From NCBI GenBank assembly GCA_965227515.1, contig CBDDFZ010000001.1, forward strand, positions 3,552,001 to 3,616,000: a stretch of DNA of 64,000 nucleotides, written 5' to 3'. The notes beneath the pieces are model-generated. The model worked only from the letters and a program-made list of their open reading frames with translations. It made no database searches and was not told the DNA's origin. Each line of letters opens with the position of its first letter. Position 1 is the first letter of the stretch. Shown piece after piece: positions 2,236 to 64,000 of the stretch. The stretch is from Alphaproteobacteria bacterium (GTDB lineage: Bacteria > Pseudomonadota > Alphaproteobacteria > CALKHQ01). The position numbers were made by a program, and so were the translations under genes.

Positions 2236-3039
2236 TCAGTTGCGCAGCACCGTGGCCAGGATCGGATAGCGGCCCATCTGGTGCGCGATGTGGGATGCCG
2301 TCACTCTCAGGTCCGGCAGGCGCTCGCACACAAGCTGCTCAGGCGTGACCATGCCGGTGTAGCCGGAGCTGTTGAGCGAGGCGATGGTGTGCCCGTCGGG
2401 GTCGCGCACCGGCACCGCGAGCGCCGTGATGCCGTAGTCGAGCTGGTCGACGGTGGTGGCATAGCCTTCCGCGCGCACTTTCATAAGTTCCGCCCGCAAC
2501 GCCTTCTTATCTATGCAGGTTTTCACCGTCAGCGCTTGTGGCTCCAGGCTATCCAGCCAATCGTCCAGGTCGGCATCGTCCATCGCCGCGACCAGAATGC
2601 GCCCCATCGAGGTGGCGAACGCGGGATAGCGCGCGCCGACCACGGCGGCGGCACGGCGGGCACGCTGTTGTGAGTAATGGGCGATGTAGATGACGTGATG
2701 GCCGTCCAGGGTCGCCACGGAGGACGCATCCCCGAAGCGCTCGACGACCCCGCGCAGATCCGGCTGCAGTACCTCGTCGATGCGGGCGGAGAAGTAGAAG
2801 GCCGAGCTCAGCGCCATGATCTTCGGGCGCAGGTGGAAGCGCTTGCCCTCCTGCCCCACGTAGCCCAGCGCCTTCAGCGTGATCAGGCTGCGGCGGGCGG
2901 CGGCGGGCGACAGGCCGACGCGGCGGGCAACCTCGCTCAGCGTCATATCCGGATGCCCGTCATCGAAGCACTCCAGGATCGCCAGCCCCTTGGCCAATGC
3001 CTCGACGAACTCGGCCGGTTTGTCGCCGTCGACCCCCAC
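2236..3039 (-). CDS. IclR-family regulator (PcaR/PobR-like)
   Basis: FVEALAKGLAILECF...MTLSEVARRVGLSPAAARRSLITL HTH; PAFATSMGR; DQLDYGITALAVPV. Confidence 0.92.
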   Translation of the reverse strand: MGVDGDKPAEFVEALAKGLAILECFDDGHPDMTLSEVARRVGLSPAAARRSLITLKALGYVGQEGKRFHLRPKIMALSSAFYFSARIDEVLQPDLRGVVERFGDASSVATLDGHHVIYIAHYSQQRARRAAAVVGARYPAFATSMGRILVAAMDDADLDDWLDSLEPQALTVKTCIDKKALRAELMKVRAEGYATTVDQLDYGITALAVPVRDPDGHTIASLNSSGYTGMVTPEQLVCERLPDLRVTASHIAHQMGRYPILATVLRN

Positions 3040-3044
3040 GGGCC

Positions 3045-3908
3045 TCAGCCCTCGGGCGCCAGCACGAAATCGAACTCCAGCATCGCGTCCGGCTTGACCG
3101 CCAAGTCGAAGCCCAAGTCGTCTACGTTCTTGGCCGGCTTCACCTTGGCAATCAGAGACTTGCGCACGCCGAACACGGCGTCGTTGTCCAGGTACTCGGT
3201 GCTGTCGAAGAACACTTCGGTGGTGATGGCGCGCTTGCCGGGCGCGCTGACGATGTAGTGCAGGTGCGCGGCCCGCCAGGCGTGGCGGTTGCCGGCGCGC
3301 AGCAGGTTCCCGACAGGGCCGTCATAGGGCACGGTGTAGGGCTTCGGCAGCACCGTGGTGTAGTAATAGCGGCCCTGGTCGTCGCAGGTGAACTTCCCGC
3401 GCAGGTCGTACTTGTCCTGCCCCTTCTCCTGCTCCTGGATCGGATAGGTGCCGGAACCGTCAGCCTGCCAGGTGTCGACCAGCGCCCCCGGCAGCGGATT
3501 ATGCAGGGTGTCGGTGACCTGGCCGTGGACCAGCACGCTGGCACCGTCGCGACCGTCGGCAAGGTCCGTGCCCAGGGCATAGGGCTGGGCATCGCTCAGA
3601 TAGAACGGCCCCAGATTGGAGCCCTCGGTCGCACCGCCACGGGTGTTGATCATGTCGACCAGTGCCGAGAACCCCAGCACGTCCGACAGCAGGATGAACT
3701 CGTGCCGCTCCGGGGTCGAGATCTGCCCGCAGTCGTACAGGAAGTTCAGGATCCCGATCCATTCCTCGTGGTTCAGATTGTGCTCGCGGGTGAAGTCGTG
3801 CAGGTGGTCGATCAAGCCGTGCAGCAATTGCTCGAACCGACTGCCAGGTTCCGTCTTGAACGTGTCTTTGACGGCCTGAGTAACCGAATACTGGTTGATG
3901 TCGCGCAT
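3045..3908 (-). CDS. Intradiol ring-cleavage dioxygenase (hydroxyquinol/catechol 1,2-dioxygenase family)
   Basis: Start re-called at MRDINQY (3908). Contains HEFILLSDVLG, GPFY, DTWQADGSGTY, PYTVPYDGP and WRAAHLH with the Fe ligands, plus DAVFGVR. Confidence 0.92.
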   Translation of the reverse strand: MRDINQYSVTQAVKDTFKTEPGSRFEQLLHGLIDHLHDFTREHNLNHEEWIGILNFLYDCGQISTPERHEFILLSDVLGFSALVDMINTRGGATEGSNLGPFYLSDAQPYALGTDLADGRDGASVLVHGQVTDTLHNPLPGALVDTWQADGSGTYPIQEQEKGQDKYDLRGKFTCDDQGRYYYTTVLPKPYTVPYDGPVGNLLRAGNRHAWRAAHLHYIVSAPGKRAITTEVFFDSTEYLDNDAVFGVRKSLIAKVKPAKNVDDLGFDLAVKPDAMLEFDFVLAPEG

Positions 3909-50472: not shown

Positions 50473-51665
50473 GCCACCTTGTCCGCCGGCGCCGACAGGC
50501 CCAGCTCGGCGAGAATCTCGTCGTTATGGGCGCCCAGCGTCGGCGGCTTGTGCCGGACGGTCAGCGGCGCGTCGTCCATTGTAATCGGCGTGCCGAGCAG
50601 GCGCACCGGACCGGCGGCGGTCTTTCCGGCTTCCACGATCATCTTGTTGACGATGGTCTGCTCGTCTTCCAGCGCCTCGGCCAGCGAGCGCACCGGCGCG
50701 TTCAGGATATCGACCCCCTCCAGGCGCTCCAGCCAGTGTGCGGTAGACTTCGTGGCGAAGCACTTCTCGAAGATCTTGTGCAGCTCGGCGCGGTTTTCCA
50801 TTTGCGCGTCGAAGTCGGCATAGTCCGGCTTCTTCGACAGATCGTCGATCTCCAGCGCCTCGCAGATGTTGCGCAGCGGGTTCTCCTTGAACGCGCCGAC
50901 CATGACGATGGCGCCGTCAGTGGTCTCGAACACCCCGGAGAGCGGGAACGCCGCCCAGTTCAGGTCCTTCTTGCGCATCATCCAGGCCGCCGCTTCCTGC
51001 ATCTGCATCGCCAGGATCGAGCTGTAGAGGCTGACTGAGACTTGCTGGCCGACGCCGGTCTTTTCCCGCTGCAACAGGGCGAGCAGGATGCCCTGCACCA
51101 GGTGCATGCCGGCGGAGTAGTCGCACAGCGTGGTGGAGTAGATCGCGGTCGGGTGCGTGGGGTCGGACTTGCGGTGCATGACGCCCGACATCGCCTGGGC
51201 CAGCACGTCCTGCCCGCCCTTGTGGACGTAGGGACCCTCCAGGCCATAGCCGGTGCCCACCGCATATATCAGGCGCGGGTTGCGCTTCTTCAGGTCCTCG
51301 AACCCGAAGCCCATGCGCTCCATCACGCCCACGCGGAAGTTGTTCACCACTACGTCGGCGGTGTCGATCAACTGCAACACCGCCTCTTTCGTCGCCGGGT
51401 CCTTCAGGTCGACCGAGAACGAGCGCTTGTTGCGGTTCAGCGAGCAGAACACAGGGTTGTTCAGGCCGTCGGGGTCCTTGCCCACCGACCAGCGCGACAG
51501 GTCGCCGACCTTCTGCTTCTCGATCTTGATCACGTCGGCGCCGTAGTCCGCCAGCATCTGGGTGCAGCACGGCCCCAGCATCACCTGGGTGAAGTCGACC
51601 ACGCGCACGCCATCGAGCGGGAGCGGCGCCTGCCCCGGCGCGTGTTGGGAGTGTTCGGTCATCAA
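50469..51665 (-). CDS. Family III CoA transferase
   Basis: LADYGADVIKIE, NRNKRS, NNFRVG, PPTLGAHN. Confidence 0.92.
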   Translation of the reverse strand: MMTEHSQHAPGQAPLPLDGVRVVDFTQVMLGPCCTQMLADYGADVIKIEKQKVGDLSRWSVGKDPDGLNNPVFCSLNRNKRSFSVDLKDPATKEAVLQLIDTADVVVNNFRVGVMERMGFGFEDLKKRNPRLIYAVGTGYGLEGPYVHKGGQDVLAQAMSGVMHRKSDPTHPTAIYSTTLCDYSAGMHLVQGILLALLQREKTGVGQQVSVSLYSSILAMQMQEAAAWMMRKKDLNWAAFPLSGVFETTDGAIVMVGAFKENPLRNICEALEIDDLSKKPDYADFDAQMENRAELHKIFEKCFATKSTAHWLERLEGVDILNAPVRSLAEALEDEQTIVNKMIVEAGKTAAGPVRLLGTPITMDDAPLTVRHKPPTLGAHNDEILAELGLSAPADKVA

Positions 51666-53032
51666 TTATCCTCTGCGTACACCAGGGCGTTGGGGGACGG
51701 GGTCTCGCCCGGATCGGCGCCCCGCGCCTTCTGGCGGTCCCGGATCGTTTGAACATCGGCATCGCGCACGTTCACGCCGGCATCCAGCGCGACGACGGCG
51801 GCGGTGCCGGCCGCCTCGCCCATCGCCATGCAGGGCGGGATCTCGCGGCTGAGCTTCTGCGCCTGCGGCGTCGCCGAATAGTGCCGCCCGGCCACCAGCA
51901 ACTGCTCCACGCCCACCGGCAGGATCGCGCGATAGGGCGTGTAGTAGTCGCGGCCCCGGCACACCGTATCCTCGAAGTGCCGGCGCTTCATGATGTCTTC
52001 CTTGGTCACCACGTACTCGCCTTGCAACAGGCGGGTCTGGCGCACGCCGGTCTGCGGCGCGAAGTCGACGATGTGGGCGTCCTCGAAGCCCGGATAGTTG
52101 GCGCGCGCGAAGTCGAGCAGGTTCTCGATCCGTGACCGGCCATCCAGCTCGGCCTTGGTCAGGTCGTTGACCTTCAGGCCGTCGAGGCCGGCCATGTGCG
52201 GGCAGTTCAGCCAGACAACGCCGGGCAGCGGCGTCTTCAGCCACCAGTGCGCCCAACAACCGCCGATGATGCGCTTGGCCTCGCGGTCGACGGCCTTGAA
52301 CCGATCGGGCTCCTCGTACTCGAAGCGCTCGGCGGCATCGGTGTCGATATTGCCCCAGCGCGACACGGTGGTGAGGATGAACGCGCCCTCGTCGAACGCC
52401 GCACCGGCGCTGGCGGCGACATCCAGATCGCCGGTGGTGTCGATGACGATGTCGCCCAGGACCGCCTGCGCGCCTTCCTTGGTGTGGCAGATCACGCCCT
52501 TGGCGGCACCGTCCTCGACGATGGCCGACGAGAACCAGCTATGGCAGCGCAGCTTGACGCCGGACTCCGCGATCATCTCGTAGGCGGCACGCTTGTAGCC
52601 GTCGGGATCGAAAGCTGCGGCGTAGACGATCGGGTGCGGCATCGTCTTGGTGCGGAAGTCGAACAGGCCCCAACGCGCCCACTTGCGATAGACGTCCATG
52701 TTGGCGCGCACATCGGGCTGGCGGTCGGCCTCGTCCGGCACGACGGCAAGGCCCCATTGCTGCATGCGCTCGATGATCTCAAGCCCGATGCCGCGCACCG
52801 AGATCTCGGTGTCGTTGTGCATGTCGTCCAGGATCAGCACCATGCCGCCGGTGGCCAGCCCGCCCAGGTAGGGGTAGCGCTCCAGCAGGGTCACGCTGGC
52901 GCCGAGCCGGGCGGCGGCAACGGCCGCCGAAATGCCGGCCGGCCCGCCACCAACCACGACCACGTCGCTGCGGTCGACCACCGTGGCCTCACGCGCGGCC
53001 TCGCGCACTGTCGGTGCATCAGTCATGTCCAT
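51662..53032 (-). CDS. FAD-dependent oxidoreductase (uncharacterised FAD_oxidored family)
   Basis: VVVGGGPAG...LLERYPYLGGLATGG; IDTTGDLD; GVRQTR; LLVAGR; CMAMGEAAG. Confidence 0.88.
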   Translation of the reverse strand: MDMTDAPTVREAAREATVVDRSDVVVVGGGPAGISAAVAAARLGASVTLLERYPYLGGLATGGMVLILDDMHNDTEISVRGIGLEIIERMQQWGLAVVPDEADRQPDVRANMDVYRKWARWGLFDFRTKTMPHPIVYAAAFDPDGYKRAAYEMIAESGVKLRCHSWFSSAIVEDGAAKGVICHTKEGAQAVLGDIVIDTTGDLDVAASAGAAFDEGAFILTTVSRWGNIDTDAAERFEYEEPDRFKAVDREAKRIIGGCWAHWWLKTPLPGVVWLNCPHMAGLDGLKVNDLTKAELDGRSRIENLLDFARANYPGFEDAHIVDFAPQTGVRQTRLLQGEYVVTKEDIMKRRHFEDTVCRGRDYYTPYRAILPVGVEQLLVAGRHYSATPQAQKLSREIPPCMAMGEAAGTAAVVALDAGVNVRDADVQTIRDRQKARGADPGETPSPNALVYAEDN

Positions 53033-53053
53033 GGTCCTCCAACGCCGTCCGGC

Positions 53054-53887
53054 CTAAAACACCGCCGGCGATTTCCAGCGTACGACCCGGCGCTCCGCCA
53101 TGCCGACCATGCTGAACAGCAGCACGGCCAGCCCGGCGCACACGAACACGGTCGCGTAGAGCAGCGGCGAGCGATAATTGTAGGTGGCCTCGATGATCAG
53201 GGCGCCGAGGCCGAAATTCGACCCGATCCATTCGCCGACCACAGCACCGATCACGCAGGTGGTGCTGGCGATCTTCAGGGCGGCGAACAGGAACGGCAAC
53301 GAGCTCTGCATCCTGAGCTTCCACAGCACTTCGCCCTTGGTGGCCGAGAGCACGCGCATCAGGTCCAGCATCGCCGGGCTCACCGCCTTCAGCCCGCGCA
53401 CCATGTTGACCAGGGTCGGGAAGAAGCAGATCAGCGCCGCAATCACGATCTTCGGCGCGTAGCCGTTGCCCAGCAGCAGCACCAGGATCGGCGCGATGGC
53501 GATGATCGGGATCGTATTGATGAACACCGCGATCGGGTAGACTGCCGCCTCGGCGGTGCGGTTGTGAACGAACCAGATCGCCAGCCCTATGGCGACCGCA
53601 TTGCCGACGATGAAGCCGATCAGCGCCTCCATCAGGGTCGGCCAGAAGTTGTTGAGCAACATCAGGCCGTCGGTCCAGAACGTCTGCAGGATCAGCCAAG
53701 GCGTCGGCGCGATGAAGGTCGGCACCTCGAACACGTCGCAGCCGACCTGCCACAGGATCAGCAGGCAGGCCACCGTCACCAGGGCTGGCCAGCGCGCCGG
53801 GCGCCCCTGCGGCGATGCCTTCTTGCGCGTGGCCGTGACGGCAGCGGTGGTGGCGCCGGCCACATCCCGCTCGATAGCGGCGCTCAT
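53054..53887 (-). CDS. NitT/TauT-family ABC permease
   Basis: IPIIAIAP, FFPTLVN, SSLPFLFAALK, GAVVGEW; start re-called. Confidence 0.9.
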   Translation of the reverse strand: MSAAIERDVAGATTAAVTATRKKASPQGRPARWPALVTVACLLILWQVGCDVFEVPTFIAPTPWLILQTFWTDGLMLLNNFWPTLMEALIGFIVGNAVAIGLAIWFVHNRTAEAAVYPIAVFINTIPIIAIAPILVLLLGNGYAPKIVIAALICFFPTLVNMVRGLKAVSPAMLDLMRVLSATKGEVLWKLRMQSSLPFLFAALKIASTTCVIGAVVGEWIGSNFGLGALIIEATYNYRSPLLYATVFVCAGLAVLLFSMVGMAERRVVRWKSPAVF

Positions 53888-54696
53888 CAGCATTCCTCCA
53901 GCAGCGCGCGCAGCTTGGCCGTGACCTCGATGAACTCCATCGTGTCGCGCACCGCCAAGCGGCGTGGGGTGCCGAGATCGACCGGTACGAAGGCGTGGAC
54001 CCGGCCGGGGTGCGAGGCCAGCATCAACACGCTCTGGCCCAGGAACGCCGCCTCCGGGATGGAGTGGGTCACGAACACGATGGTGGTCCCGGTCTCCTGC
54101 CAGATCCGCAGCAGTTCCTCGTTCAGCTTGTCGCGGGTGATCTCGTCCAGCGCACCGAACGGCTCGTCCATCAGCAGGATGCGCGGGCGCACCACCAGCG
54201 CGCGGGCAATCGCCACCCGTTGACGCATGCCGCCGGACAGCTCGTCCGGGTAGGCCAGTTCGCGGCCGGAAAGCCCGACCATGGCCAGCAGCGCTTCCGG
54301 GTCTTCGTGGTCGGGACTGCCGCCGCCGACTTCCAGCGGCAGGCGCACATTGTCGATGACCGTGCGCCAGGGCAGCAGCGTCGCCTCTTGGAAGACGAAG
54401 GCGAAGTCGCGCTCGCGCCTGGCCTGCCAGGGCTCGCGGCCGTGGACGACGATGTTGCCGTCGGTGATCGGCACAAGGTCGGCGATGGCTCGCAGCAGGG
54501 TCGACTTCCCACAACCGGACGGACCCAGCATGGTGACCAGCCCGCCCTCCGGAATGTCGACGCTGACGTCCTGCAGCGCCGTCACGCCGTCGACGTCGTC
54601 GCCGAACCGGACGGTGACGTTCTCGACCGAGATGGCGGTGCGCCCCACTTCGGACGCACCGGCCATATCAGTGGTTGCGGTCATGGCGGCCGACAC
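53887..54696 (-). CDS. NitT/TauT-family ABC ATPase
   Basis: [34 protein letters not shown]. Confidence 0.93.
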
Positions 54697-54726
54697 GGCG
54701 ACGGACCCTGGCTGGCGCGCGGCGGG

Positions 54727-55764
54727 CTAGCCCTTGCGCGCCTCGGCGGTGGCGTCCAGGATCGCGGTGGTCATCACGTCATCCACCGTCGGCACGTCGC
54801 CGCTGAACTGCTCCAACGCGGCATAGGTGTCGATCTGGGCCCGCCAGTTGGCCGGGTCCATCACACCCCAGCCGCCGGCATCGGTGGCATCGCCGAAGCT
54901 GAAGCCGATCACCGGGCCGACCGCTTGCAACTCGGAATCGCGGTCCAGGTTCGGGAACATCGCGACCAGCAGGTCGACCGCCTCTTCCTGGTTGTCGCGG
55001 GCGTATTGCCAGCCGCGCGCCGAACCGCGGATGAAGCCGGCCAGCACGTCGCCGTGCTCTTCGAGCATGTCGTCGGTGCTGAAATAGACATTGGCGTAGA
55101 GCTGGATGCCGGCGTCCCACAGCATCATGTCGACCCGGTCCTCGCCGAGCACGCTGAGCGCGCCGACATTGGTCTGCCAGCCGGTGACGGCGGCGACCTG
55201 GCCGGTCACGAGCTGGTTCATGTCGCTGCCCATGGGAATGACCTCGACATCGTCCTCGCTGATACCGTTGGCGGCCAACAGCGCGCGCAACAGGATTTCG
55301 GCGGTCGGCTGGGTCGCGATGGTCTGGCCGACCATGTCGGCGGGCTCGCGAATCGGGTTGCCCTCAAGCGAGAAGTACGTGAACGGGTGCTTCTGGTAGC
55401 CGGCGGCAATCGCCTTGATCGGAATGCCGGCGGAGCGCGCCAGCATCAGCGCCGGGCTGGACGAGGTCTGGCCGCCTTCCTTGGCGCCGGAACCGACGGC
55501 GGCGACACCGTCCACGTTCGGCCCGCCGGGGGTGATGGAAAGCTCGACGCCCTCCTCCGCGTAGAAGCCCTTGGCAATGCCGACCACTTCGCCGATCACG
55601 CCGTTACTGGCCAGCCAGCCAAGCTGCAGGTCGACCTCGGCCATGTCCTGGGCACGGGCGCCCACGGTCACCAGGCTGGCGACCGATGCCGGCATTGCGC
55701 CGGCCAAACCTGCGCTGCCAAGACCCTTCAGGACATTGCGGCGATGCGTACGCGTCTTCAACAT
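54727..55764 (-). CDS. NMT1/THI5-like ABC substrate-binding protein with Tat signal
   Basis: HRRNVLK; LQLGW, KGFYAEEGVEL, PGGP. Confidence 0.87.
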   Translation of the reverse strand: MLKTRTHRRNVLKGLGSAGLAGAMPASVASLVTVGARAQDMAEVDLQLGWLASNGVIGEVVGIAKGFYAEEGVELSITPGGPNVDGVAAVGSGAKEGGQTSSSPALMLARSAGIPIKAIAAGYQKHPFTYFSLEGNPIREPADMVGQTIATQPTAEILLRALLAANGISEDDVEVIPMGSDMNQLVTGQVAAVTGWQTNVGALSVLGEDRVDMMLWDAGIQLYANVYFSTDDMLEEHGDVLAGFIRGSARGWQYARDNQEEAVDLLVAMFPNLDRDSELQAVGPVIGFSFGDATDAGGWGVMDPANWRAQIDTYAALEQFSGDVPTVDDVMTTAILDATAEARKG

Positions 55765-55906: not shown

Positions 55907-56079
55907 CAAATTCAAGAACGGGCGCGAACGCCCAAATTGCGTCACCGATCCTCCGCATCGCCGGCCAACTGCGCGTCCATGGTCCCGTCAACGAGGACGC
56001 GGCACGACGCGCGACGGCGGGCAATATGCTATTGCTGAGCGAATGAACCGGAGAAACTGAGAGCGATTCAGGAGGTTCC

Positions 56080-56967
56080 ATGGACAGACGCGATTTCATG
56101 GCAGGGACTGCCGCAGCCATTGCGGCGGGCAGCGTTGCCCTGCCCGTGGGCGCGACTCAGGAGACGACGGTTCCGCAGCCGTACGACTGGAACGCCTATC
56201 CGCCGATGGCGCCCGGCCAGCGCGCCGAATACATCGAATGGATGGTCGAGAATCGTGGCGAGGACCCGTACTACCTGGGCCTGCACTGGGACCGTTATCA
56301 GGTGCTGGTCAACAACCGCGACCTGCTGGACGACCGCAACAAACGCGCCTTCCTGATGCTGCCGCGCGAGGAGTTCTGCCTGGAGCGCAATTTGAGCCGC
56401 GCCTATGAGCACGCCTTCCTCGACATCGGCTATGGGGTCACCATCTCCGGCCCGCACCTGGTCGGCCGTATGACCACCTCCATCGACGTCCAGTTCGGCG
56501 AGAAGGTGCTGGAGGTCGGCACCGGCTCCGGCTACCAGTCCGCCTACCTGGCCAATTTGACCGACAAGGTGTGGACCATCGAGATCATCGCCCCGCTGGC
56601 CGAGCGCACGCGCGGCGTCCACGACAACCTGATCGCCCGGGGCTACACCGAATACCAGGCGATCTCATCGAAGAACGCCGACGGCTATTATGGGTGGGAG
56701 GACGCAGGCCCTTTCGACAAGATCATCGTGACCTGCGGCATCGACCATGTGCCGCCGCCGCTGCTGCAACAGCTCAAGGTCGGCGGCATCATGGTGATCC
56801 CGGTCGGGCCGCCCGGCGCCCACCACGTGCTCAAGATCATCAAGGAACAGGCCGAGGACGGCACCGTCCGGGTCAATCGCACCGACATCTATGGCGGGCG
56901 CGTCGTGCCGTTCGTGCCCTTCACCAAGCTGGAGGGCGACGAGATCGTCGGCGTCCACCACCAGTAG
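56080..56967 (+). CDS. pcm: Protein-L-isoaspartate O-methyltransferase (PIMT) family protein with Tat signal peptide, copy 1
   Basis: MDRRDFM...LPVGA signal; PREEF, VTISGP, KVLEVGTGSGYQSA, GPFDKIIVTCG, LLQQLKVGGIMVIPVG, FVPF. Confidence 0.88.
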   Translation: MDRRDFMAGTAAAIAAGSVALPVGATQETTVPQPYDWNAYPPMAPGQRAEYIEWMVENRGEDPYYLGLHWDRYQVLVNNRDLLDDRNKRAFLMLPREEFCLERNLSRAYEHAFLDIGYGVTISGPHLVGRMTTSIDVQFGEKVLEVGTGSGYQSAYLANLTDKVWTIEIIAPLAERTRGVHDNLIARGYTEYQAISSKNADGYYGWEDAGPFDKIIVTCGIDHVPPPLLQQLKVGGIMVIPVGPPGAHHVLKIIKEQAEDGTVRVNRTDIYGGRVVPFVPFTKLEGDEIVGVHHQ

Positions 56968-57057
56968 ACAACTTACCGCCCGCAACAGAGGAATGCTTTC
57001 CTTTGCGCCCGGCGCGATGCGATGTTACGCGCAGCGGACTCAGAGTCGGAGGATACC

Positions 57058-57942
57058 GTGAAAAGACGAGACTTCATGGCGGGTACTGCCGCCGTCGCCG
57101 CGGGCAGTATGGCCCTGCCCGGACTTGCCAGCGCGGAGACGTCCGTTCCGCTCCCGTACAATTGGGAAGCCTATCCGCCGATGGAGCTGGGCCAGCGCGC
57201 CGAATACATCGAGTGGATGGCGCAGTATCGCGGTGAGGACCCGCACTTCCTGGGCCTGCATTGGGACCGCTACGAGCACCTGATCGGTCACCGCGACTTG
57301 CTGGACGACCGCACCAGGCGGGCCTTTCTGATGACGCCGCGCGAGGAATTCTGCCTGGAGCGCAACCTTGGCCGCGTCTATGACCGCGCTTTCCTCGACA
57401 TCGGCTGGGGCGTGACCATTTCCGGCCCGAATCTGGTCGGCCGGATGACCAGCTCGATCAAGGTCGACTTCGGCGAGAAGGTGCTGGAGGTCGGCACCGG
57501 CTCCGGCTACCAGTCGGCCATGCTGTCCAACCTGACCGACAAGGTGTGGACCATCGAGATCATCGCGCCGCTGGCCGAGCGCACGCGCGGCATCTACGAC
57601 GCGCTGATCGAGCGCGGCTATACCGAGTACGGCGCCATCACCAGCAAGAACGCCGACGGCTACTATGGCTGGGAAGAGGCCGCCCCGTTCGACAAGATCG
57701 TCGTCACCTGCGGCATCGACCACGTGCCGCCGCCGCTGCTGCAGCAGCTCCGGGTCGGCGGCATCATGGTGATTCCGGTCGGTCCGCCCGGTGGCCACCA
57801 CGTGCTGAAGATCGTCAAGGAACAGGCCGATGACGGTACGGTCCGCGTCGCCCGGTCCGACATCTACGGCGGCAGCATCGTGCCGTTCGTGCCCTTCACC
57901 AAGCTGGAAGGGGACGAAATCGTCGGTGTCCACCACCAGTAG
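57058..57942 (+). CDS. pcm: PIMT family protein with Tat signal peptide, copy 2 (tandem paralog)
   Basis: GTG start after GGAGG; KRRDFM...LASA signal; same PIMT motifs; identical C-terminus EGDEIVGVHHQ. Confidence 0.88.
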   Translation: MKRRDFMAGTAAVAAGSMALPGLASAETSVPLPYNWEAYPPMELGQRAEYIEWMAQYRGEDPHFLGLHWDRYEHLIGHRDLLDDRTRRAFLMTPREEFCLERNLGRVYDRAFLDIGWGVTISGPNLVGRMTSSIKVDFGEKVLEVGTGSGYQSAMLSNLTDKVWTIEIIAPLAERTRGIYDALIERGYTEYGAITSKNADGYYGWEEAAPFDKIVVTCGIDHVPPPLLQQLRVGGIMVIPVGPPGGHHVLKIVKEQADDGTVRVARSDIYGGSIVPFVPFTKLEGDEIVGVHHQ

Positions 57943-57999
57943 GCACCTCGACCTGTCGATGCCGGTGCGCCCGCCGCGACGCGCCGGACGGGGCACCGC

Positions 58000-60675
58000 A
58001 TGACCACTCTTGCGGCCGCGAGCGAGCGGTACATCAGCACGCCGCGGCCGTCGCTCCTGCTCTATCTCGCCATGGGCCTCGTCGCCGGGGCCGTCATTGC
58101 GTACCAGATTTTCATCATGCGGGTCTTCGCGGTGGGGAGCTGGACCCACTTCGGCTCGTTCGTCGTCGCCCTCGCCATGCTCGGCTTCGGCCTGGCCAGC
58201 GCGGTGATGGCGCTGTCGAAGGAGTTCTTCCAGCGCCGATGGCGCGGCGTGACGACCGTGTCGGTGGTCCTGTTCGGCCCGCTGATGGCCGGTTGCCAAA
58301 TCGTGGCGCAGCAGTACCCGTTCAACCCGATCTTCCTGGTCTCAGATCCGGCGCAGAGCTGGAACCTGGCAACCAACTTCGTTCTCTATTTCCTACCGTT
58401 CTTCGCCGCCGCCGTCTTCATCGGCACCGTGTTCCTGAAGACCTCCCAGGTCTTCGGACGGGTCTATTTCGCCGACCTGCTGGGTGCCGGGCTTGCCGGC
58501 CTGCTCATCCTCGGCGGCATGTTCCTGTTCCCGCCGGAACACCTGATCGTCGTGCCGCTGACGGTCTGGTTCATCGGCGCACTGTGCTGGCTGAAGTGGA
58601 TCGAAGGCCGCGCGAGCTTTGCATGCCTTATCGTTGCCGCCATTCTTTCGGCCGGGCTGCATGCCGTGCCGCCGCGTGCCGGCGACCTCGTCGATGCGCT
58701 CGGCCTGCGCGACGTGTTCCCGACCGCCGAGAATCTGCCGCACATCGCGGTGTCCGACTACAAGGGCGTTTCCTACGCGCGCAACTTCCCGGACTCCGAG
58801 CGCGTCTATTCGGACATCTCGCCGTTCGGCGACCTGCAAATCTACCAAAGCTCGTACCTGCATTTCGCGCCCGGCCTGTCCGACAACGCGGCTTTCAACA
58901 TCCCGGAGATGCCGTCGAACGCCTTCCTCGGCATGTACATCGACAGCGACGGGCCGAGCGGCATCATGCGCGAGCTGCCGGACGAACAGACGCTCTATTT
59001 CCGTTTCCTGCCGATGTACTACCCGTTCCTGGTCAAGGAGGATCCGTCGGTCTTCGTGGTCCAGTTCGGCGGCGGTATCTCCACGACCGTGGCGCTGCGC
59101 AGCGGTGCGTCGGACGTGACGGTGGCGGAGGCCAACCCTGCCGTGCTGAGCGTGATGGACGCGCCGCTTGTCCGCGACTTCACCGGCGACCTGCTGGGCG
59201 ACCCGCGCCTGACGGTGATCCCCTACGAGGGGCGCCTGTTCCTGGCCTCGACCGACCAGCGCTACGACATCATCGACTTGAGCCTCGCCGACTCCGTCGG
59301 GCTTTCCAGCCCTGGCGGCTTCGCCATCGCGGAGCGCTACGCCTACACCCGCGAGGCGATGAGCACGTATATGCGCGCGCTCGACGACGGGGGCATCCTG
59401 TCGGTCACGGTGTGGAACAAGGAGGAGCCGCCGAAGTCGGTGCTGCGCCTCTATGCCACCATGGCCGAGGCGGCGCGGGAGATCGATCCGGACAGCGTGG
59501 CGCAGTCGTTCTATGTCGCCGCCAACTACCTCTCCACCGCGACCGTGCTCTACAAGCGCGGCGGCTTCACGGACGAGGAGATCGCCATCCTCTCCGACAA
59601 CACCTACGCACTGTCGTTCGACGAGATATTCGCGCCGGGCATCGAGGTCGAGGGCGACGAGGCGCAGCTCCTGTCCGACTACCGGGCGCAGATCTTCGGC
59701 ATCGAAGATGGGGGCGATGGGTCGGGCGCCGATCCGATGGCGTGGATGGAAGACGACAGCGACCCGATGCTGGATCCCGTCTTCGAGGAGGGACCGGTGG
59801 TGATGCCGGCGACCTCGCTCGGCCGTTTCGCCTGGCAGGCGCTGGCCAACGACGACTGGGAGACCTTCTCGAGCACGTACGTTTTCGATGTGGACGGCCT
59901 GGACAACGACCGCCCCTATTTCGCGGCTTACGTGCGCCCGTCCGACCTGCCCGACACCCTCGACCGGCTGGAGCTGTTCCAGGACGACTGGGGCTATCTC
60001 GCGGTCTGGGGCACGCTGATCGTTGCCGGCATCGCGGCCCTGTTCCTGCTGTTGTTCCCGATCGTCTTCGGCTGGCGCGCCATCTTCAGCGCCTATCCCG
60101 GCAAGCTCGGCACCCTGCTCTACTTCGCCTGCCTCGGCTTCGGCTACATGCTGGTCGAGGTCGGGATGATCTCCAAGTTCATCCTGGCGCTGTCGACACC
60201 CACCGTCTCCGCCTCGGTGCTGATCACCGGCATGCTGGTCTTCTCCGGCCTCGGCAGCCTGCTGTCGGAGCGGTTCCTCGACCGCGCCAAGCAGGTGATG
60301 CCCTACGTCTTCGCGACCATCGGCGTGCTGCTGATCGGCTACAGCTTCGTCCTCGACTACGTGCTCGACTGGATCGGCACCTTCCCCTACGTCGTCCGCC
60401 TGGTGCTGTGCCTGGCCCTGATCGCGCCGCCGGCATTGCTGATGGGCTTCCCGCTTGCAACCGCCATGACCTGGCTCGGCCGGCTGGGCAAGGACCATCT
60501 GTTCATCTGGGCCTGGGGCATCAACGGCAGCTTCTCGGTCATCGGCTCGGCGGCGATCCCGGTGCTGGCGGTCAGCTTCGGCCTGACCTCGGTGATCCAG
60601 ATCGCCGGCATCGCCTACCTCATCGCCCTGCCCGCCTTCGTAGCGGTGTTGCTGCCGCTGCGCCGCCCGGCATGA
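58000..60675 (+). CDS. Polytopic membrane protein (~14 TM) with a central spermidine-synthase-like SAM-binding domain
   Basis: 7 N-terminal and 7 C-terminal hydrophobic segments; the central domain has VVQFGGG...VTVAEANP, EGRLFL, YDIIDL, YTREAM and LDDGGILSV. Confidence 0.8.
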   Translation: MTTLAAASERYISTPRPSLLLYLAMGLVAGAVIAYQIFIMRVFAVGSWTHFGSFVVALAMLGFGLASAVMALSKEFFQRRWRGVTTVSVVLFGPLMAGCQIVAQQYPFNPIFLVSDPAQSWNLATNFVLYFLPFFAAAVFIGTVFLKTSQVFGRVYFADLLGAGLAGLLILGGMFLFPPEHLIVVPLTVWFIGALCWLKWIEGRASFACLIVAAILSAGLHAVPPRAGDLVDALGLRDVFPTAENLPHIAVSDYKGVSYARNFPDSERVYSDISPFGDLQIYQSSYLHFAPGLSDNAAFNIPEMPSNAFLGMYIDSDGPSGIMRELPDEQTLYFRFLPMYYPFLVKEDPSVFVVQFGGGISTTVALRSGASDVTVAEANPAVLSVMDAPLVRDFTGDLLGDPRLTVIPYEGRLFLASTDQRYDIIDLSLADSVGLSSPGGFAIAERYAYTREAMSTYMRALDDGGILSVTVWNKEEPPKSVLRLYATMAEAAREIDPDSVAQSFYVAANYLSTATVLYKRGGFTDEEIAILSDNTYALSFDEIFAPGIEVEGDEAQLLSDYRAQIFGIEDGGDGSGADPMAWMEDDSDPMLDPVFEEGPVVMPATSLGRFAWQALANDDWETFSSTYVFDVDGLDNDRPYFAAYVRPSDLPDTLDRLELFQDDWGYLAVWGTLIVAGIAALFLLLFPIVFGWRAIFSAYPGKLGTLLYFACLGFGYMLVEVGMISKFILALSTPTVSASVLITGMLVFSGLGSLLSERFLDRAKQVMPYVFATIGVLLIGYSFVLDYVLDWIGTFPYVVRLVLCLALIAPPALLMGFPLATAMTWLGRLGKDHLFIWAWGINGSFSVIGSAAIPVLAVSFGLTSVIQIAGIAYLIALPAFVAVLLPLRRPA

Positions 60676-61625
60676 GGGTGCGCGCAGCGCTGGCCTGCGC
60701 TGCCATGCTGTCCATCACCGCCGCCGATGGGGAGGCCCGGCCCGTGGCCCAAAGCCTGACCGAAATCGTCCCGTTCGACACCTACGCCTTCCCGTACGAC
60801 GGCATCAGCCCGATCACCGACCAGCCGTTCCTGGATGTGATCGAGGATGGGCGGCGCGGCCACACGTCGCCGCGCGCCGGCCTGTTGTGGGAGGACGAGC
60901 ACTATTTCGACCGCAGCACGCTGCTGCACATCCCCGCCGGCTTCGATCCCGACGCGCCGGCGGCCCTGGTCGTGTTCTTCCATGGCAACCAGACCATCCT
61001 GGAGCGCGATGTCGTTGGCCGCCAGCGGGTGCCGGCCCAGCTCGAGGCATCGGGCCTGAACGCGGTGCTGGCGGCACCGCAGCTTGCCTATGACGCGCCC
61101 GATTCCAGCGCCGGCGGCTTCTGGCGGCCGCGCGCGTTCCAGCAATGGCTGAGCGAGGCGTCGGCCCGGCTGGCCGGCATGCTTGGCGACCACGACCTGT
61201 CGTCGCGCATCGACGATCTGCCGATCGTGCTGGTCGCCTACAGCGGCGGCTACAACCCGGCGGCCTATGCGTTGTCGGTCGGCGGCGCGCGCGGGCGCGT
61301 CTGCGGCACGATCCTGCTCGACGGCCCCTATGACGACGAGGAAGCCTTCGTCGACTGGATCGCGCGCCGTGGCGACGGCTTCTTCATCAGCGCCCACTCG
61401 AAGTCCGCCTCGGAAAGCAACGAGGAACTGCGCACCCTGTTGACGGCGCGCGGCATTCCCTTCCAACAGGTCGCGCGCGACCCCCATCCGGCGCCGGGCG
61501 CGGTGACTTTCCTGGACGTCGGCGAGGATGTGCCGCACGAGGATTTCGTGACCCAGGCCTGGCGCCCCAATCCTCTGCAATGGTTCCTGAGCCAGCTTGC
61601 GGATCGGGAGCTCTGCGCCGGATAG
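60672..61625 (+). CDS. Putative secreted alpha/beta-hydrolase-fold protein
   Basis: ATG overlaps the upstream stop (ATGA); N-terminal signal-like segment; VVFFHGN, LAAPQ, VAYSGGY elbow, LLDG, late His (VPHE). Confidence 0.7.
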   Translation: MRVRAALACAAMLSITAADGEARPVAQSLTEIVPFDTYAFPYDGISPITDQPFLDVIEDGRRGHTSPRAGLLWEDEHYFDRSTLLHIPAGFDPDAPAALVVFFHGNQTILERDVVGRQRVPAQLEASGLNAVLAAPQLAYDAPDSSAGGFWRPRAFQQWLSEASARLAGMLGDHDLSSRIDDLPIVLVAYSGGYNPAAYALSVGGARGRVCGTILLDGPYDDEEAFVDWIARRGDGFFISAHSKSASESNEELRTLLTARGIPFQQVARDPHPAPGAVTFLDVGEDVPHEDFVTQAWRPNPLQWFLSQLADRELCAG

Positions 61626-61789: not shown

Positions 61790-63232
61790 ATGGCCGATTC
61801 CAAGCCCGCCGCCCAATCGCCCGATTACGTCGAGCGCTTCGAGGATGCCATCGAGCGCAACCGGCCGCGCATCGCCGACGCCAAGGCGGCGCTGGAGAAG
61901 GCGGGCGTGAAGTACGTGATGGCGTGCTGGATCGACCTGCACGGCCTGCCCAAGACCAAGCCGGTGCCGATGGCGGAGTTCGAGACGGTCTGCCTGGGCA
62001 AGGGGCCGCAGTTCGCCGTTCATTCGGTCTCGTTCGTGCCGGAGCTGTCGCCCGCGGATTCCGACCAGATCGTCGTGCCGGACCTGGACGCGGTCTATGT
62101 CTGCCCGTGGGACACCAGCATGGCGATGGTGTTCTCCGACCTCTACTGGGAGGGCGCGCCCTACAATGTGTGCCCGCGCCAGGCCTTGCGCCGCGCCATG
62201 CGCGATGCCCGTCAGGCCGGGTATGTCGGCTATGCCGGGGTCGAGCCCGAGTTCATCGTGATGCGCCACGACGAGGCCGGCCAGCCGGTGAAGGCGTTCG
62301 ACGACGATCCGCCGGAGGGCGTGCGCCCGCGCCGCCAGGCCTTTGGCTACGACGTGGAATACTCCATCGATTCCATGCCGTTCCTGAAGGACATGATCGA
62401 CATCCTGGGCGGGCTGGGCTGGGACCTGCGCGACGTGGTTGCCGAGGGCGCCTATTCCCAGTTCGAGCTCGATTTCGGTTACACGAACTTGTTGCAGATG
62501 GCCGACCGGCTGGCTTTCCTGCGCATCGTGCTGAAGGAGGTGGCCAAGAAGCACGGCATGTTCGTCACCTTCATGCCGAAGCCGACTACCGGCGACTGGC
62601 GCTCCGGCGCGCACATCAATTTCTCGCTGCGCAGCACCGCCACCCCCGAGGACAATCTGTTCCAGCAGGGCGACGGCTGGTCGCCGCAGGCCGGCCACGC
62701 GGTCGGCGGGTTGATGGCCCATGCCGAGGCGCTGACCGCCATCACCTGCCCGACGGTCAACTCCTATAACGGGCTGGTGCCGCGCGTCGGCGGGTTCGAG
62801 GGCGGCACCGTCACCTGGGCGCCGACCAACATCACCTACGGTCACAATAACCGCTCCGCGCAGTTCCGCCTGCCGCAGAACCGGTTCTGCATCGAGAACC
62901 GGGCGGCGGACATGACCATGAACCCCTACCTGGCCTTCGCCATGACCCTGACATCGGCGATCGAGGGCATCGAGAAGGGCATCGATCCCGGTCCGCCGAC
63001 CGACCGCGACCTCTACGCGATGACACGGGAGGAGTTCGACGAACTCGGTATTCGGCGGCTGCCGCGCAACCTGTTGCAGGCGACGGAGGCACTGGCCACC
63101 GACCCTCTGGCCACGCGGGTGCTGGGGCCGACGATGCTGAAGTCCTACCTCGCCTACAAGAACGACGAGTGGGAGCGTTACCACCAGGCGGTGACCGACT
63201 GGGAGGTGCAGGAGTATCTGAGGCTCTACTGA
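61790..63232 (+). CDS. Glutamine synthetase family ligase (GlnT/GmaS-like gamma-glutamylamide synthetase)
   Basis: [39 protein letters not shown]...NNRS, IENR. Confidence 0.85.
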
Positions 63233-64000
63233 TGGCCACCGCACCGGACTGCGAGGTCTTCGACCTCGGCGACGTGACGCTGCTGTCGGGCGAGGTGCTG
63301 CGCGGCGCGCGGCTGGCCTACAAGACCTATGGCGCGCTGGCGCCGGACGGCGGCAATGTGGTGGTGCTGCCGACCTTCTACACCGGCAGCCACATGCGCA
63401 ACGAAGGCTTCTTCGGCACCGGGCGCGCCATCGATCCGGCCCGCCACTTCATCGTCTCGATCAATATGTTCGGCAACGGCATCTCGTCGTCGCCGAGCAA
63501 CACGCCGGCCCCGCAGGACAGTCCGCGCTTCCCGCTGGTGACGTTGTGGGACAACATCGCCTGCCAGCACCGGCTGCTGACCGAGCGCCTGGGTGTGGAA
63601 CGCATCGCGCTCGTCGCCGGCTGGTCGATGGCCGGCTGCCAGGCCTATCAGTGGGGCGCGCAATACCCGGATATGGTCGACGCCATCCTGCCGTTCTGCG
63701 CTTCGGCCCGCACCTCGCCGCACAATTGGGTGTTCCTGGAGGGCGTGAAGGCGGCACTGTGCGCGGACCAGGGCTGGAAGGGCGGCGACTACGCTTCGCC
63801 ACCGGTCGCCGGGCTGAAGGCATTCGCGCGCGTCTATGCCGGCTGGGCCTATTCGCAGACCTTCTATCGCGAGGGGCTCTTCCGCCAGCTCGGCTTCGCG
63901 ACGCCGGAAGACCTGCTGGTCGACTGGGAGGACGACCACGCCACGAACTGGGATGCCAACGACCTGCTGGCCAAGCTCGCGACCTGGCAGGCCGGCGATA
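63232..64000 (+). CDS. Homoserine O-acetyltransferase (MetX)-like alpha/beta hydrolase, 3'-truncated by the window end
   Basis: Not in the ORF track. ATG overlaps the GS stop; [49 protein letters not shown]. Confidence 0.8.

Follow-up and report, generated by a model that had tools for sequence, protein, structure and literature searches.

In the genome of an Alphaproteobacteria bacterium of the GTDB lineage CALKHQ01 (assembly GCA_965227515.1), four genes that are set apart by short gaps and span positions 56080-61625 of the stretch analyzed here encode two homologs of protein-L-isoaspartate O-methyltransferase (PIMT-A and PIMT-B), a membrane protein of 891 residues and a hydrolase-like protein. 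The stretch, in the following termed the window, comprises 64,000 nucleotides of contig CBDDFZ010000001.1 (positions 3,552,001 to 3,616,000). An earlier reading of the sequence alone (the original prediction) had described the four genes as co-oriented and close-set, and all four indeed lie on the + strand; it had assigned them to a candidate periplasmic protein repair system dependent on S-adenosylmethionine (SAM). Our comparisons indicate that the exported PIMT and the membrane protein constitute a two-gene core module present in many bacterial lineages. It is quite possible, if tentative, that the locus encodes an envelope carboxyl-methyltransferase complex in which the membrane protein supplies the methyl donor. 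The narrower claim, that PIMT and the membrane protein form an extracytoplasmic complex, is more likely than this full account.

The formation of isoaspartate (isoAsp) is a major kind of spontaneous protein damage. To our knowledge, a cytoplasmic location is assumed for the only enzyme known to repair isoAsp, and SAM is presumed absent from the periplasm. The module raises two linked questions, namely whether envelope proteins are repaired and whether SAM-dependent chemistry takes place outside the cytoplasm, and both are directly testable because cultured carriers exist (Cupriavidus necator, Methylotuvimicrobium buryatense 5G, Nitrosospira briensis).

Signal-bearing methyltransferases and their conserved neighbor

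PIMT-A and PIMT-B match the PCMT family PF01135 with 139.3 and 133.7 bits, respectively (cutoff 20.3), are 80% identical in an alignment of 40 PIMT sequences that includes the genome's own cytoplasmic Pcm (alignment A3) and are nearest neighbors in the tree described below. The original prediction of intact PIMT motifs is borne out by this alignment, all 40 rows of which share T121, S123, P125, E145, G147, G149, S150, E168, D201 and G202; the motifs TIS.P, ExGxGSG, E168 and D201-G202 are present in the window proteins just as in the cytoplasmic Pcm. According to a study on a PIMT paralog of Paracoccus denitrificans complex I (PMC11522691), the Thr/Ser pair provides the ligands for isoAsp and the Asp-Gly pair those for SAM, and inactive PIMT paralogs have lost these residues. 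ExGxGSG and an acidic residue at the end of beta-2 likewise count among the SAM-binding motifs. A short PCMT paralog without the TIS motif and with an N-terminus like MTNFAQARVNMIEGQLRPN was seen in six of six genomes (C1:2593255-2593743, L004, in the window's own genome; counterparts L168-L172). These proteins form a distant clade in the tree and by description recall the inactive CI-PIMT/RPA2580 type portrayed in that study.

Both PIMTs of the window carry N-terminal twin-arginine translocation (Tat) signals. The N-terminus of PIMT-A reads MDRRDFMAGTAAAIAAGSVALPVGA followed by TQ, with residues 1-26 making up the signal (MDRRDFM...) and a predicted cleavage after VGA. The open reading frame (ORF) of PIMT-B extends from 57022 to 57942 and has its first ATG at 57022, but the GTG at 57058 is the likelier start because it is preceded by GGAGGA and matches the N-termini of orthologs. 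Read from this GTG, the protein begins with (M)KRRDFMAGTAAV..., and cleavage is predicted after KRRDFMAGTAAVAAGSMALPGLASA, ahead of E. The DRRDFM and KRRDFM motifs of PIMT-A and PIMT-B are each accompanied by an Ala/Gly-rich hydrophobic core and an Ala-ending region, and RRxF[ILM] is found in 15 of the 16 close-clade rows of alignment A3. Scores of Tat models are modest: PIMT-A reaches 20.2 bits with TIGR01409 (cutoff 16.7) and 19.5 bits with Pfam TAT_signal (cutoff 22.7), while PIMT-B stays below the latter cutoff with 16.5 bits and matches no NCBIfam Tat model. The twin-arginine signals claimed earlier are present at starts backed by ribosome-binding sites (RBS) and are kept in orthologs. 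The objection that translation may begin at internal, signal-less starts is countered by the AGGAGG and GGAGGA motifs, which stand before the signal-containing starts of both genes.

Signals were judged by motifs and by a measure of hydrophobicity, with signal-less paralogs serving as controls. Hydrophobic, signal-like N-termini occur in all 25 readable PIMT loci of a class-level sample (one further locus is masked), where they are of the Tat type in the close clade and of the Sec type in a group whose membrane protein has about 810 residues. Among the loci from other lineages that hold both genes, a 12-residue hydrophobic peak above 1.8 precedes the PIMT core in 66 of 68, and the exact motif GQTISQP is present in 64 of these 68 module PIMTs. 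Fourteen of the 15 signal-less PCMT paralogs of the control set are devoid of a hydrophobic segment, and in the remaining one it appears solely when an improbable upstream extension is counted in. As judged from these sequences, Tat export is confined to the present alphaproteobacterial clade, most relatives being equipped with Sec-type signals. Carriage of a bound cofactor by Tat, a property of this pathway named in the original prediction, can thus not be the general way of bringing the cofactor out. Two further PIMTs have unusual N-termini. In locus L038 (G070:C18, about 2800-3436) PIMT is encoded downstream of the membrane gene and has the N-terminus MTIDRRRLIAGGAALAGASTLVAC, where the twin-arginine signal closes with a lipobox-like Cys. 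The PIMT of L016 (G352:C632) has a long N-terminal extension, in which a segment resembling a membrane anchor is followed by a stretch of about 90 residues rich in Lys, Glu and Ala before the core begins.

The association of the two genes is widespread. In the class-level sample of 401 genomes, the membrane protein is encoded in 37 (E<=1e-10) and the long PIMT type in 14 (E<=1e-40), and all 14 of the latter also have the membrane protein. Of 30 loci retrieved from this sample, 27 show a PIMT homolog next to the membrane gene; of the three misses, one lies at a contig edge, one has its PIMT on another contig and one has none within 1.5 kb. Scanning species-representative genomes with a 12-row alignment confirmed 585 loci, of which 80, from other lineages, were kept. 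They stem from Gamma- and Betaproteobacteria, Campylobacterota, Desulfobulbales and Poribacteria, the proteobacterial carriers including Nitrosomonas, Nitrosospira, Cupriavidus, Variovorax, Methylotuvimicrobium, Methylobacter and Thiodiazotropha. PIMT is located directly upstream of the membrane gene in 73 of the 80, and three of the seven misses lack upstream DNA. Recurrence in 27/30 and 73/80 loci places the gene arrangement far beyond chance. When all ORFs of the 80 loci were clustered against each other, two clusters only were widely shared, the membrane protein (75 loci) and PIMT (71); the next six, of which one example each was inspected, lie within the PIMT or membrane genes in another frame. 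The class-level loci likewise revealed no further conserved partner.

The original prediction also implied that signal-bearing, as opposed to cytoplasmic, pcm genes should accompany the membrane protein. Precisely this pattern was found in a census of six genomes, namely that of the window and five others that are near-complete, in which 22 PCMT-family genes were detected at the thresholds used: all seven signal-bearing genes adjoin a membrane gene, as opposed to none of the 15 without a signal. Of four genomes in which no PIMT adjoins the membrane gene, two carry a signal-bearing PIMT in a different place. In the Poribacteria G404 and G403 (loci L173 and L178), where no PIMT is adjacent to the membrane gene, a PIMT with a hydrophobic N-terminus is found at another site, in G404 on the same contig at a distance of about 150 kb.

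In a quick maximum-likelihood tree of 54 PIMT sequences, in which six alphaproteobacterial proteins are the sole representatives of cytoplasmic Pcm, the module PIMTs (23 of the Sec type and 16 of the Tat type, together with two signal-less paralogs) fall into one clade (SH-aLRT 96) and the six cytoplasmic Pcm into a separate one (SH-aLRT 95). The Tat-type proteins are monophyletic (SH-aLRT 100) on a long stem and carry, in the window proteins, clade-specific inserts. The two signal-less paralogs (L156, G006:C1:3111372-3111944, and L166, G155:C3:2503976-2504536) share the motif GKT[IV]SQP and pair with each other (SH-aLRT 99); the one in G006 is situated between a gene for a PPIC-type parvulin and one for an S33 alpha/beta-hydrolase. 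Possibly they are module PIMTs that went back to the cytoplasm; alternatively, their starts may have been misassigned.

It might be argued that the window simply holds cytoplasmic pcm duplicates, translated from internal starts and by chance located near an unrelated membrane-bound spermidine synthase. The generic source names 'protein-L-isoaspartate O-methyltransferase' as well as 'spermidine synthase', and the marginal scores of Tat-signal hidden Markov models would agree with such ordinary genes. We consider this very improbable in view of the strong RBS motifs before the signal-containing starts, the maintenance of the signals at the protein level across lineages and the adjacency of the two genes in almost all loci. 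Moreover, a canonical Pcm (218 bits) is already encoded elsewhere in the same genome, as is a further PCMT paralog, and the membrane protein misses the models for spermidine synthase (SpeE) by a wide margin, as detailed below.

The membrane protein and its predicted complex with PIMT

In an AlphaFold2 (AF2) model of the 891-residue protein (predicted local distance difference test, pLDDT, 90.5; predicted TM-score, pTM, 0.92), seven transmembrane (TM) helices are followed by a domain of 435 residues (222-656) and by another seven helices, helices 7 and 8 thus flanking the inserted domain. VIA, a fold search over about 48,000 solved chains that is independent of Foldseek, matched the helical part to the major facilitator superfamily (MFS) with Z scores of 20-27, headed by VMAT2 (Z 26.9, root mean square deviation (rmsd) 3.6, 347 residues aligned) and comprising OxlT, SotB, NorA and the 14-helix NorC (Z 20-26). 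The loops on the side of the N-terminus contain on average 15.8 Lys plus Arg residues over 87 sequences and those on the opposite side 2.6, which places the termini inside and the inserted domain in the periplasm. An MFS-like protein with an outward-facing domain of a SAM-binding type of fold, as originally proposed, is thus supported by the fold match, the seven-plus-seven helix order and the charge distribution. A repeat between the two seven-helix halves was not detected with hhalign (E 0.2).

The inserted domain has the fold of SpeE, an N-terminal beta domain joined to a Rossmann domain. VIA aligned residues 257-663 with the Thermus enzyme 1uir (Z 20.4, rmsd 3.4 over 261 residues), Foldseek by itself found SpeE (E 4e-6, TM-score to target 0.52-0.59), and a profile of 12 relatives matched 1uir with E 4e-11. 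The domain carries a Gly-rich loop, FGGG, in the 355-358 region, E377 and D423, in addition to a conserved (R/H)xAPGLS loop at residues 288-294. In the alignment with 1uir, GaGgGs stands against GGGEG, a Gly replacing the acidic residue of the Gly-rich loop, and 'qlaLlDa' against 'IIDLTDP', where the first Asp of D-x-x-D-P gives way to Ala and, in the window protein, to Ser. We take the former position to confer selectivity for decarboxylated SAM and the latter to be the catalytic Asp. Because both are replaced, the domain is not a canonical aminopropyltransferase, though its sequence retains the look of a nucleotide-binding protein. Family models agree with this divergence: no Pfam family, PF01564 included, matched the window protein at E<=0.01, and NCBIfam models yielded weak matches to polyamine aminopropyltransferase (E 5.7e-4; 19 bits as opposed to a cutoff of 260) and no MFS model. 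Among 23 relatives, PF01564 scores above its cutoff in seven, below it in five and not at all in 11.

Relatives of the membrane protein are numerous. A search of protein representatives returned 8327 at E<=0.001 and 2057 at E<=1e-30, mostly of about 800 residues, which go under the source names 'hypothetical protein', 'spermidine synthase', 'predicted membrane-bound spermidine synthase' and 'SAM-dependent methyltransferase'. Alignment A1 comprises the query and 86 full-length rows out of 150 listed relatives. One representative, P0123 (1162 residues), joins the membrane protein to the hydrolase encoded by the fourth gene (35% identity, E 2e-44), the signal-like segment of the hydrolase forming a 15th helix; it is a candidate fusion, or may reflect a run-through of the gene call.

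The state of the SpeE-fold domain invites an explanation in which no catalysis takes place outside the cytoplasm. Both Rossmann-type domains could be ligand binders of an MFS importer or sensor for SAM, S-adenosylhomocysteine (SAH), methylthioadenosine (MTA) or polyamines, or the PIMT-like protein could hand damaged proteins over to proteases. The absence of the acidic residue from the Gly-rich loop and the Ala or Ser at the Asp of SpeE point in this direction, as does the position of the domain far below every SpeE cutoff. Reuse of PIMT folds as non-catalytic subunits is on record (PMC11522691). Yet the Thr/Ser and Asp-Gly residues that, by the same study, are lost in inactive paralogs are invariant in the proteins studied here, and so strict an upkeep of the isoAsp-binding TIS motif is not expected in a mere binder of nucleosides. 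We therefore regard non-catalytic roles as improbable.

Complex formation between the periplasmic domain (residues 222-656, alignment A1) and mature PIMT-A (residues 27-295, alignment A3) was predicted with an ipSAE of 0.80 (0.81, 0.80 and 0.69 in individual runs), the controls giving 0.00, 0.11 and 0.00; the pLDDT of the partners was 82 or higher, and contacts agreed to 47% or more. Of 80 solved complexes, 58 attain the pass mark, as do 2 of 110 mismatched pairs, a calibration that is only rough for the present case because custom unpaired alignments were used. Docking of PIMT on the membrane protein, which the original prediction had suggested examining by a multimer-type calculation, is thus predicted at 0.80 against a best control of 0.11, and the model supports binding of PIMT-A to the periplasmic domain. 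In the predicted interface, R/H288, A290, P291, G292, L293 and S294 of the membrane protein and an I-R-S-W motif (about 507-510) face PIMT residues 223-230 (HVPPPLLQ). These motifs of the membrane protein are the best-conserved soluble ones of its family, and on either partner the predicted contact falls on the most strongly conserved motifs. Furthermore, inserts at 563-567 and 589-603 that are confined to membrane proteins of the close clade are predicted to contact an insert (262-278) confined to the Tat-type PIMTs. On the PIMT side, the interface also takes in residues 118-119, 169-172, 199-203 and 221-230, beside the TIS, E168 and DG motifs. This proximity to the active-site motifs would fit a hand-off of the cofactor.

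The same geometry is relevant to the idea that PIMT modifies a single dedicated carboxylate, be it in a loop of the membrane protein itself, thereby regulating the transporter, or in a peptide or metabolite exported by the MFS part. PIMT homologs of peptide natural-product pathways methylate a defined Asp. The membrane protein loop 288-299 is predicted to lie against PIMT residues 223-230, next to the TIS and DG motifs, the module is self-contained, and the window PIMTs match TIGR04188 and TIGR04364, models linked to ribosomally synthesized and post-translationally modified peptides (RiPPs), with 82-100 bits, although this is far below the cutoffs. However, the docked loop has no conserved Asp or Asn (at position 295, 58 of 87 sequences have Leu, and at position 296 Asn occurs in no more than 25 of 87), and no conserved gene for a precursor peptide or for biosynthesis was found nearby in the class-level loci or the 80 loci from other lineages. 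Sec-type members of the module exceed the NCBIfam cutoffs for equivalogs of the repair PIMT in all five cases tested (225-242 bits with NF001453, 202-217 with TIGR00080), and a methyl donor outside the cytoplasm would be needed all the same. We consider a dedicated substrate unlikely.

A possible methyl-donor route into the envelope

A Sec-exported PIMT arrives free of cofactor, keeps its catalytic motifs and is predicted to dock on the sole conserved partner, and the simplest account is therefore that the membrane protein supplies the methyl donor. The envelope methyltransferase complex that we tentatively propose would operate as follows. The MFS part would provide a route for SAM or an equivalent methyl donor to the periplasmic side, a role that is likely for it because no other partner is conserved and most relatives are Sec-exported in an unfolded state. 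Taking up or retaining the nucleoside would fall to the degenerate SpeE-fold domain, which would also present it to PIMT. The docked PIMT would then methylate isoaspartyl (or aspartyl) carboxyls of envelope proteins, and SAH could return by the same MFS route. SAM export, SAH removal and isoAsp repair by the module are inferred.

Several observations weigh against this proposal. The proposal presupposes that SAM exists in the periplasm, and SAM could leak away through porins. No SAH-handling gene is conserved near the module in the 80 clustered loci. The PIMTs of the window score below the equivalog cutoffs that the Sec-type members surpass (157 and 151 bits with NF001453, cutoff 188; 137 and 127-128 bits with TIGR00080, cutoff 159) and sit on a long branch (1.25), so that their specificity may have shifted. 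The predicted interface, for which calibration is rough as stated above, could equally denote a cleft that is blocked or occupied by a pseudo-substrate, and its position over the cofactor and substrate face of PIMT could hinder the access of protein substrates. Such hindered substrate access is described for the PIMT subunit of Paracoccus complex I, which is inactive (PMC11522691). Finally, the other two of the four genomes mentioned above whose membrane gene lacks an adjacent PIMT show no signal-bearing PIMT at all.

As a whole, the original interpretation is partly supported. It came through every computational test that it had put forward and holds with respect to export signals, module, fold and predicted docking, but neither the general Tat route nor the hydrolase as a general member could be upheld, and SAM transport and repair activity would be further, proposed properties. 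It is possible, if doubtful, that the module is the first bacterial machinery found to move SAM across the inner membrane for periplasmic chemistry and to repair isoaspartate in the long-lived envelope proteins of Gram-negative bacteria. Through the module, a function would also be gained for a very large family of unannotated membrane proteins, which counts 2057 representative clusters at E<=1e-30.

The hydrolase, the surroundings and known systems

The start codon of the hydrolase gene overlaps the stop codon of the membrane gene (ATGA), and its product has a signal-like N-terminus. For the AF2 model (pLDDT 92.3), VIA gave CE1/feruloyl esterases, enzymes of the esterase D type and antigen 85 as the nearest matches (Z 15-16.6; 5vol 16.6, 1jt2 16.5), and Foldseek also returned catalytic domains of DPP4; scans with Pfam and NCBIfam gave no family match. 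S191 (in YSGGY), D217 and H289 are invariant in the 42 rows of alignment A4 and probably make up a catalytic triad. Relatives were found only in the close alphaproteobacterial clade. A putative secreted hydrolase is accordingly present, as the original prediction had it, but as part of the module it is limited to this clade. It would be a clade-specific accessory, possibly acting on methyl esters or damaged proteins, and could be a methyl-esterase or a peptidase for damaged proteins.

Table 1. Features of the PIMT-membrane protein locus, given as positions in the window
Feature	Position	Strand	Basis
RBS of PIMT-A, AGGAGG	56070..56075	+	4 nt 5' of start ATG; direct sequence reading
PIMT-A, exported PCMT-family methyltransferase, 295 aa	56080..56967	+	PF01135, E 1.9e-40
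RBS of PIMT-B, GGAGGA	57048..57053	+	4 nt 5' of GTG start; direct sequence reading
PIMT-B, tandem paralog, 294 aa from GTG	57058..57942	+	PF01135, E 1e-38; RBS and ortholog N-termini
Membrane protein, 891 aa, predicted 14-helix MFS fold with inserted periplasmic domain	58000..60675	+	AF2 model, VIA
TM helices 1-7, residues 19-221	58054..58662	+	Helix boundaries of the model; positive-inside count
Predicted periplasmic spermidine-synthase-fold domain, residues 222-656	58663..59967	+	Foldseek, VIA, profile against 1uir
TM helices 8-14, residues 657-887	59968..60660	+	AF2 model; positive-inside count
Putative secreted alpha/beta-hydrolase-fold protein, 317 aa	60672..61625	+	AF2, VIA, invariant columns of A4

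The genes flanking the locus (51662-55764 on the - strand and 61790-63999 on the + strand of the window), read from their translations alone, resemble those for an FAD-dependent oxidoreductase, an ABC transporter (permease, ATPase and a binding protein with Tat signal), a glutamine-synthetase-like and an acyltransferase-like protein. Conservation of these genes with the module was not seen in the class-level loci, nor was that of the ABC transporter, oxidoreductase and glutamine-synthetase-like genes in the 80 loci from other lineages. A scan for promoters and terminators returned no more sites than shuffled sequences did. A defense system was considered and dismissed, since PADLOC gave only partial matches to the mad2 methyltransferase (24-53 bits over about 140 of 492 positions), which we read as generic likeness of fold.

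A full-text literature search, in which some queries were loosely posed, yielded neither a PIMT that is exported or periplasmic nor any methyltransferase or SAM in the periplasm, and no published description of this module; the folds of the components are known, while their assembly and location are undescribed. With cytoplasmic Pcm/PIMT (PF01135, TIGR00080), the module PIMTs share the fold and the motifs for cofactor and substrate, and the Sec-type members even pass the equivalog cutoffs, but they differ from it by their signal peptide, their pairing with an MFS-SpeE protein and their separate clade. Membrane-bound spermidine-synthase-like proteins of the PRK03612 type likewise combine helices with a SpeE-fold domain, and weak matches to NF002956 were obtained. 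In the module, however, the domain interrupts a predicted 14-helix MFS protein between helices 7 and 8 and faces outward, the proteins score 15-60 bits as compared with a cutoff of 472, and key SpeE positions are replaced.

MsrPQ is a periplasmic system for methionine-sulfoxide repair and consists of the Tat-exported MsrP and the membrane protein MsrQ. The likeness lies in an exported repair enzyme and a membrane protein that brings a consumable from the cytoplasmic side. The families are unrelated, and MsrQ passes electrons whereas the module, as proposed, would need to get a diffusible cofactor across the membrane. If our proposal is true, the module would be the isoaspartate counterpart of MsrPQ for long-lived envelope proteins.

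CI-PIMT of the Paracoccus denitrificans complex I (8qby chain t), to which a module PIMT has a PDB sequence match with E 2.6e-14, resembles the module PIMTs as a PIMT-fold paralog permanently docked on a membrane complex. It differs in its cytoplasmic location and in the loss of the Thr/Ser and Asp-Gly residues (PMC11522691), while the module PIMTs are predicted to be exported and have kept them. In a preprint (bioRxiv 10.1101/2021.07.06.451061), SAM transporters of the plant Golgi (GoSAMTs) are sought among MFS proteins, which are proposed to bring SAM beyond the cytosol for carboxyl methyl-esterification, in that case of pectin. GoSAMTs are eukaryotic and have neither a fused SpeE-fold domain nor a PIMT partner, and it is by their proposed role that we set them beside the module. 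MsrPQ is the nearest precedent in logic, and the plant Golgi MFS transporters for SAM are the nearest in chemistry.

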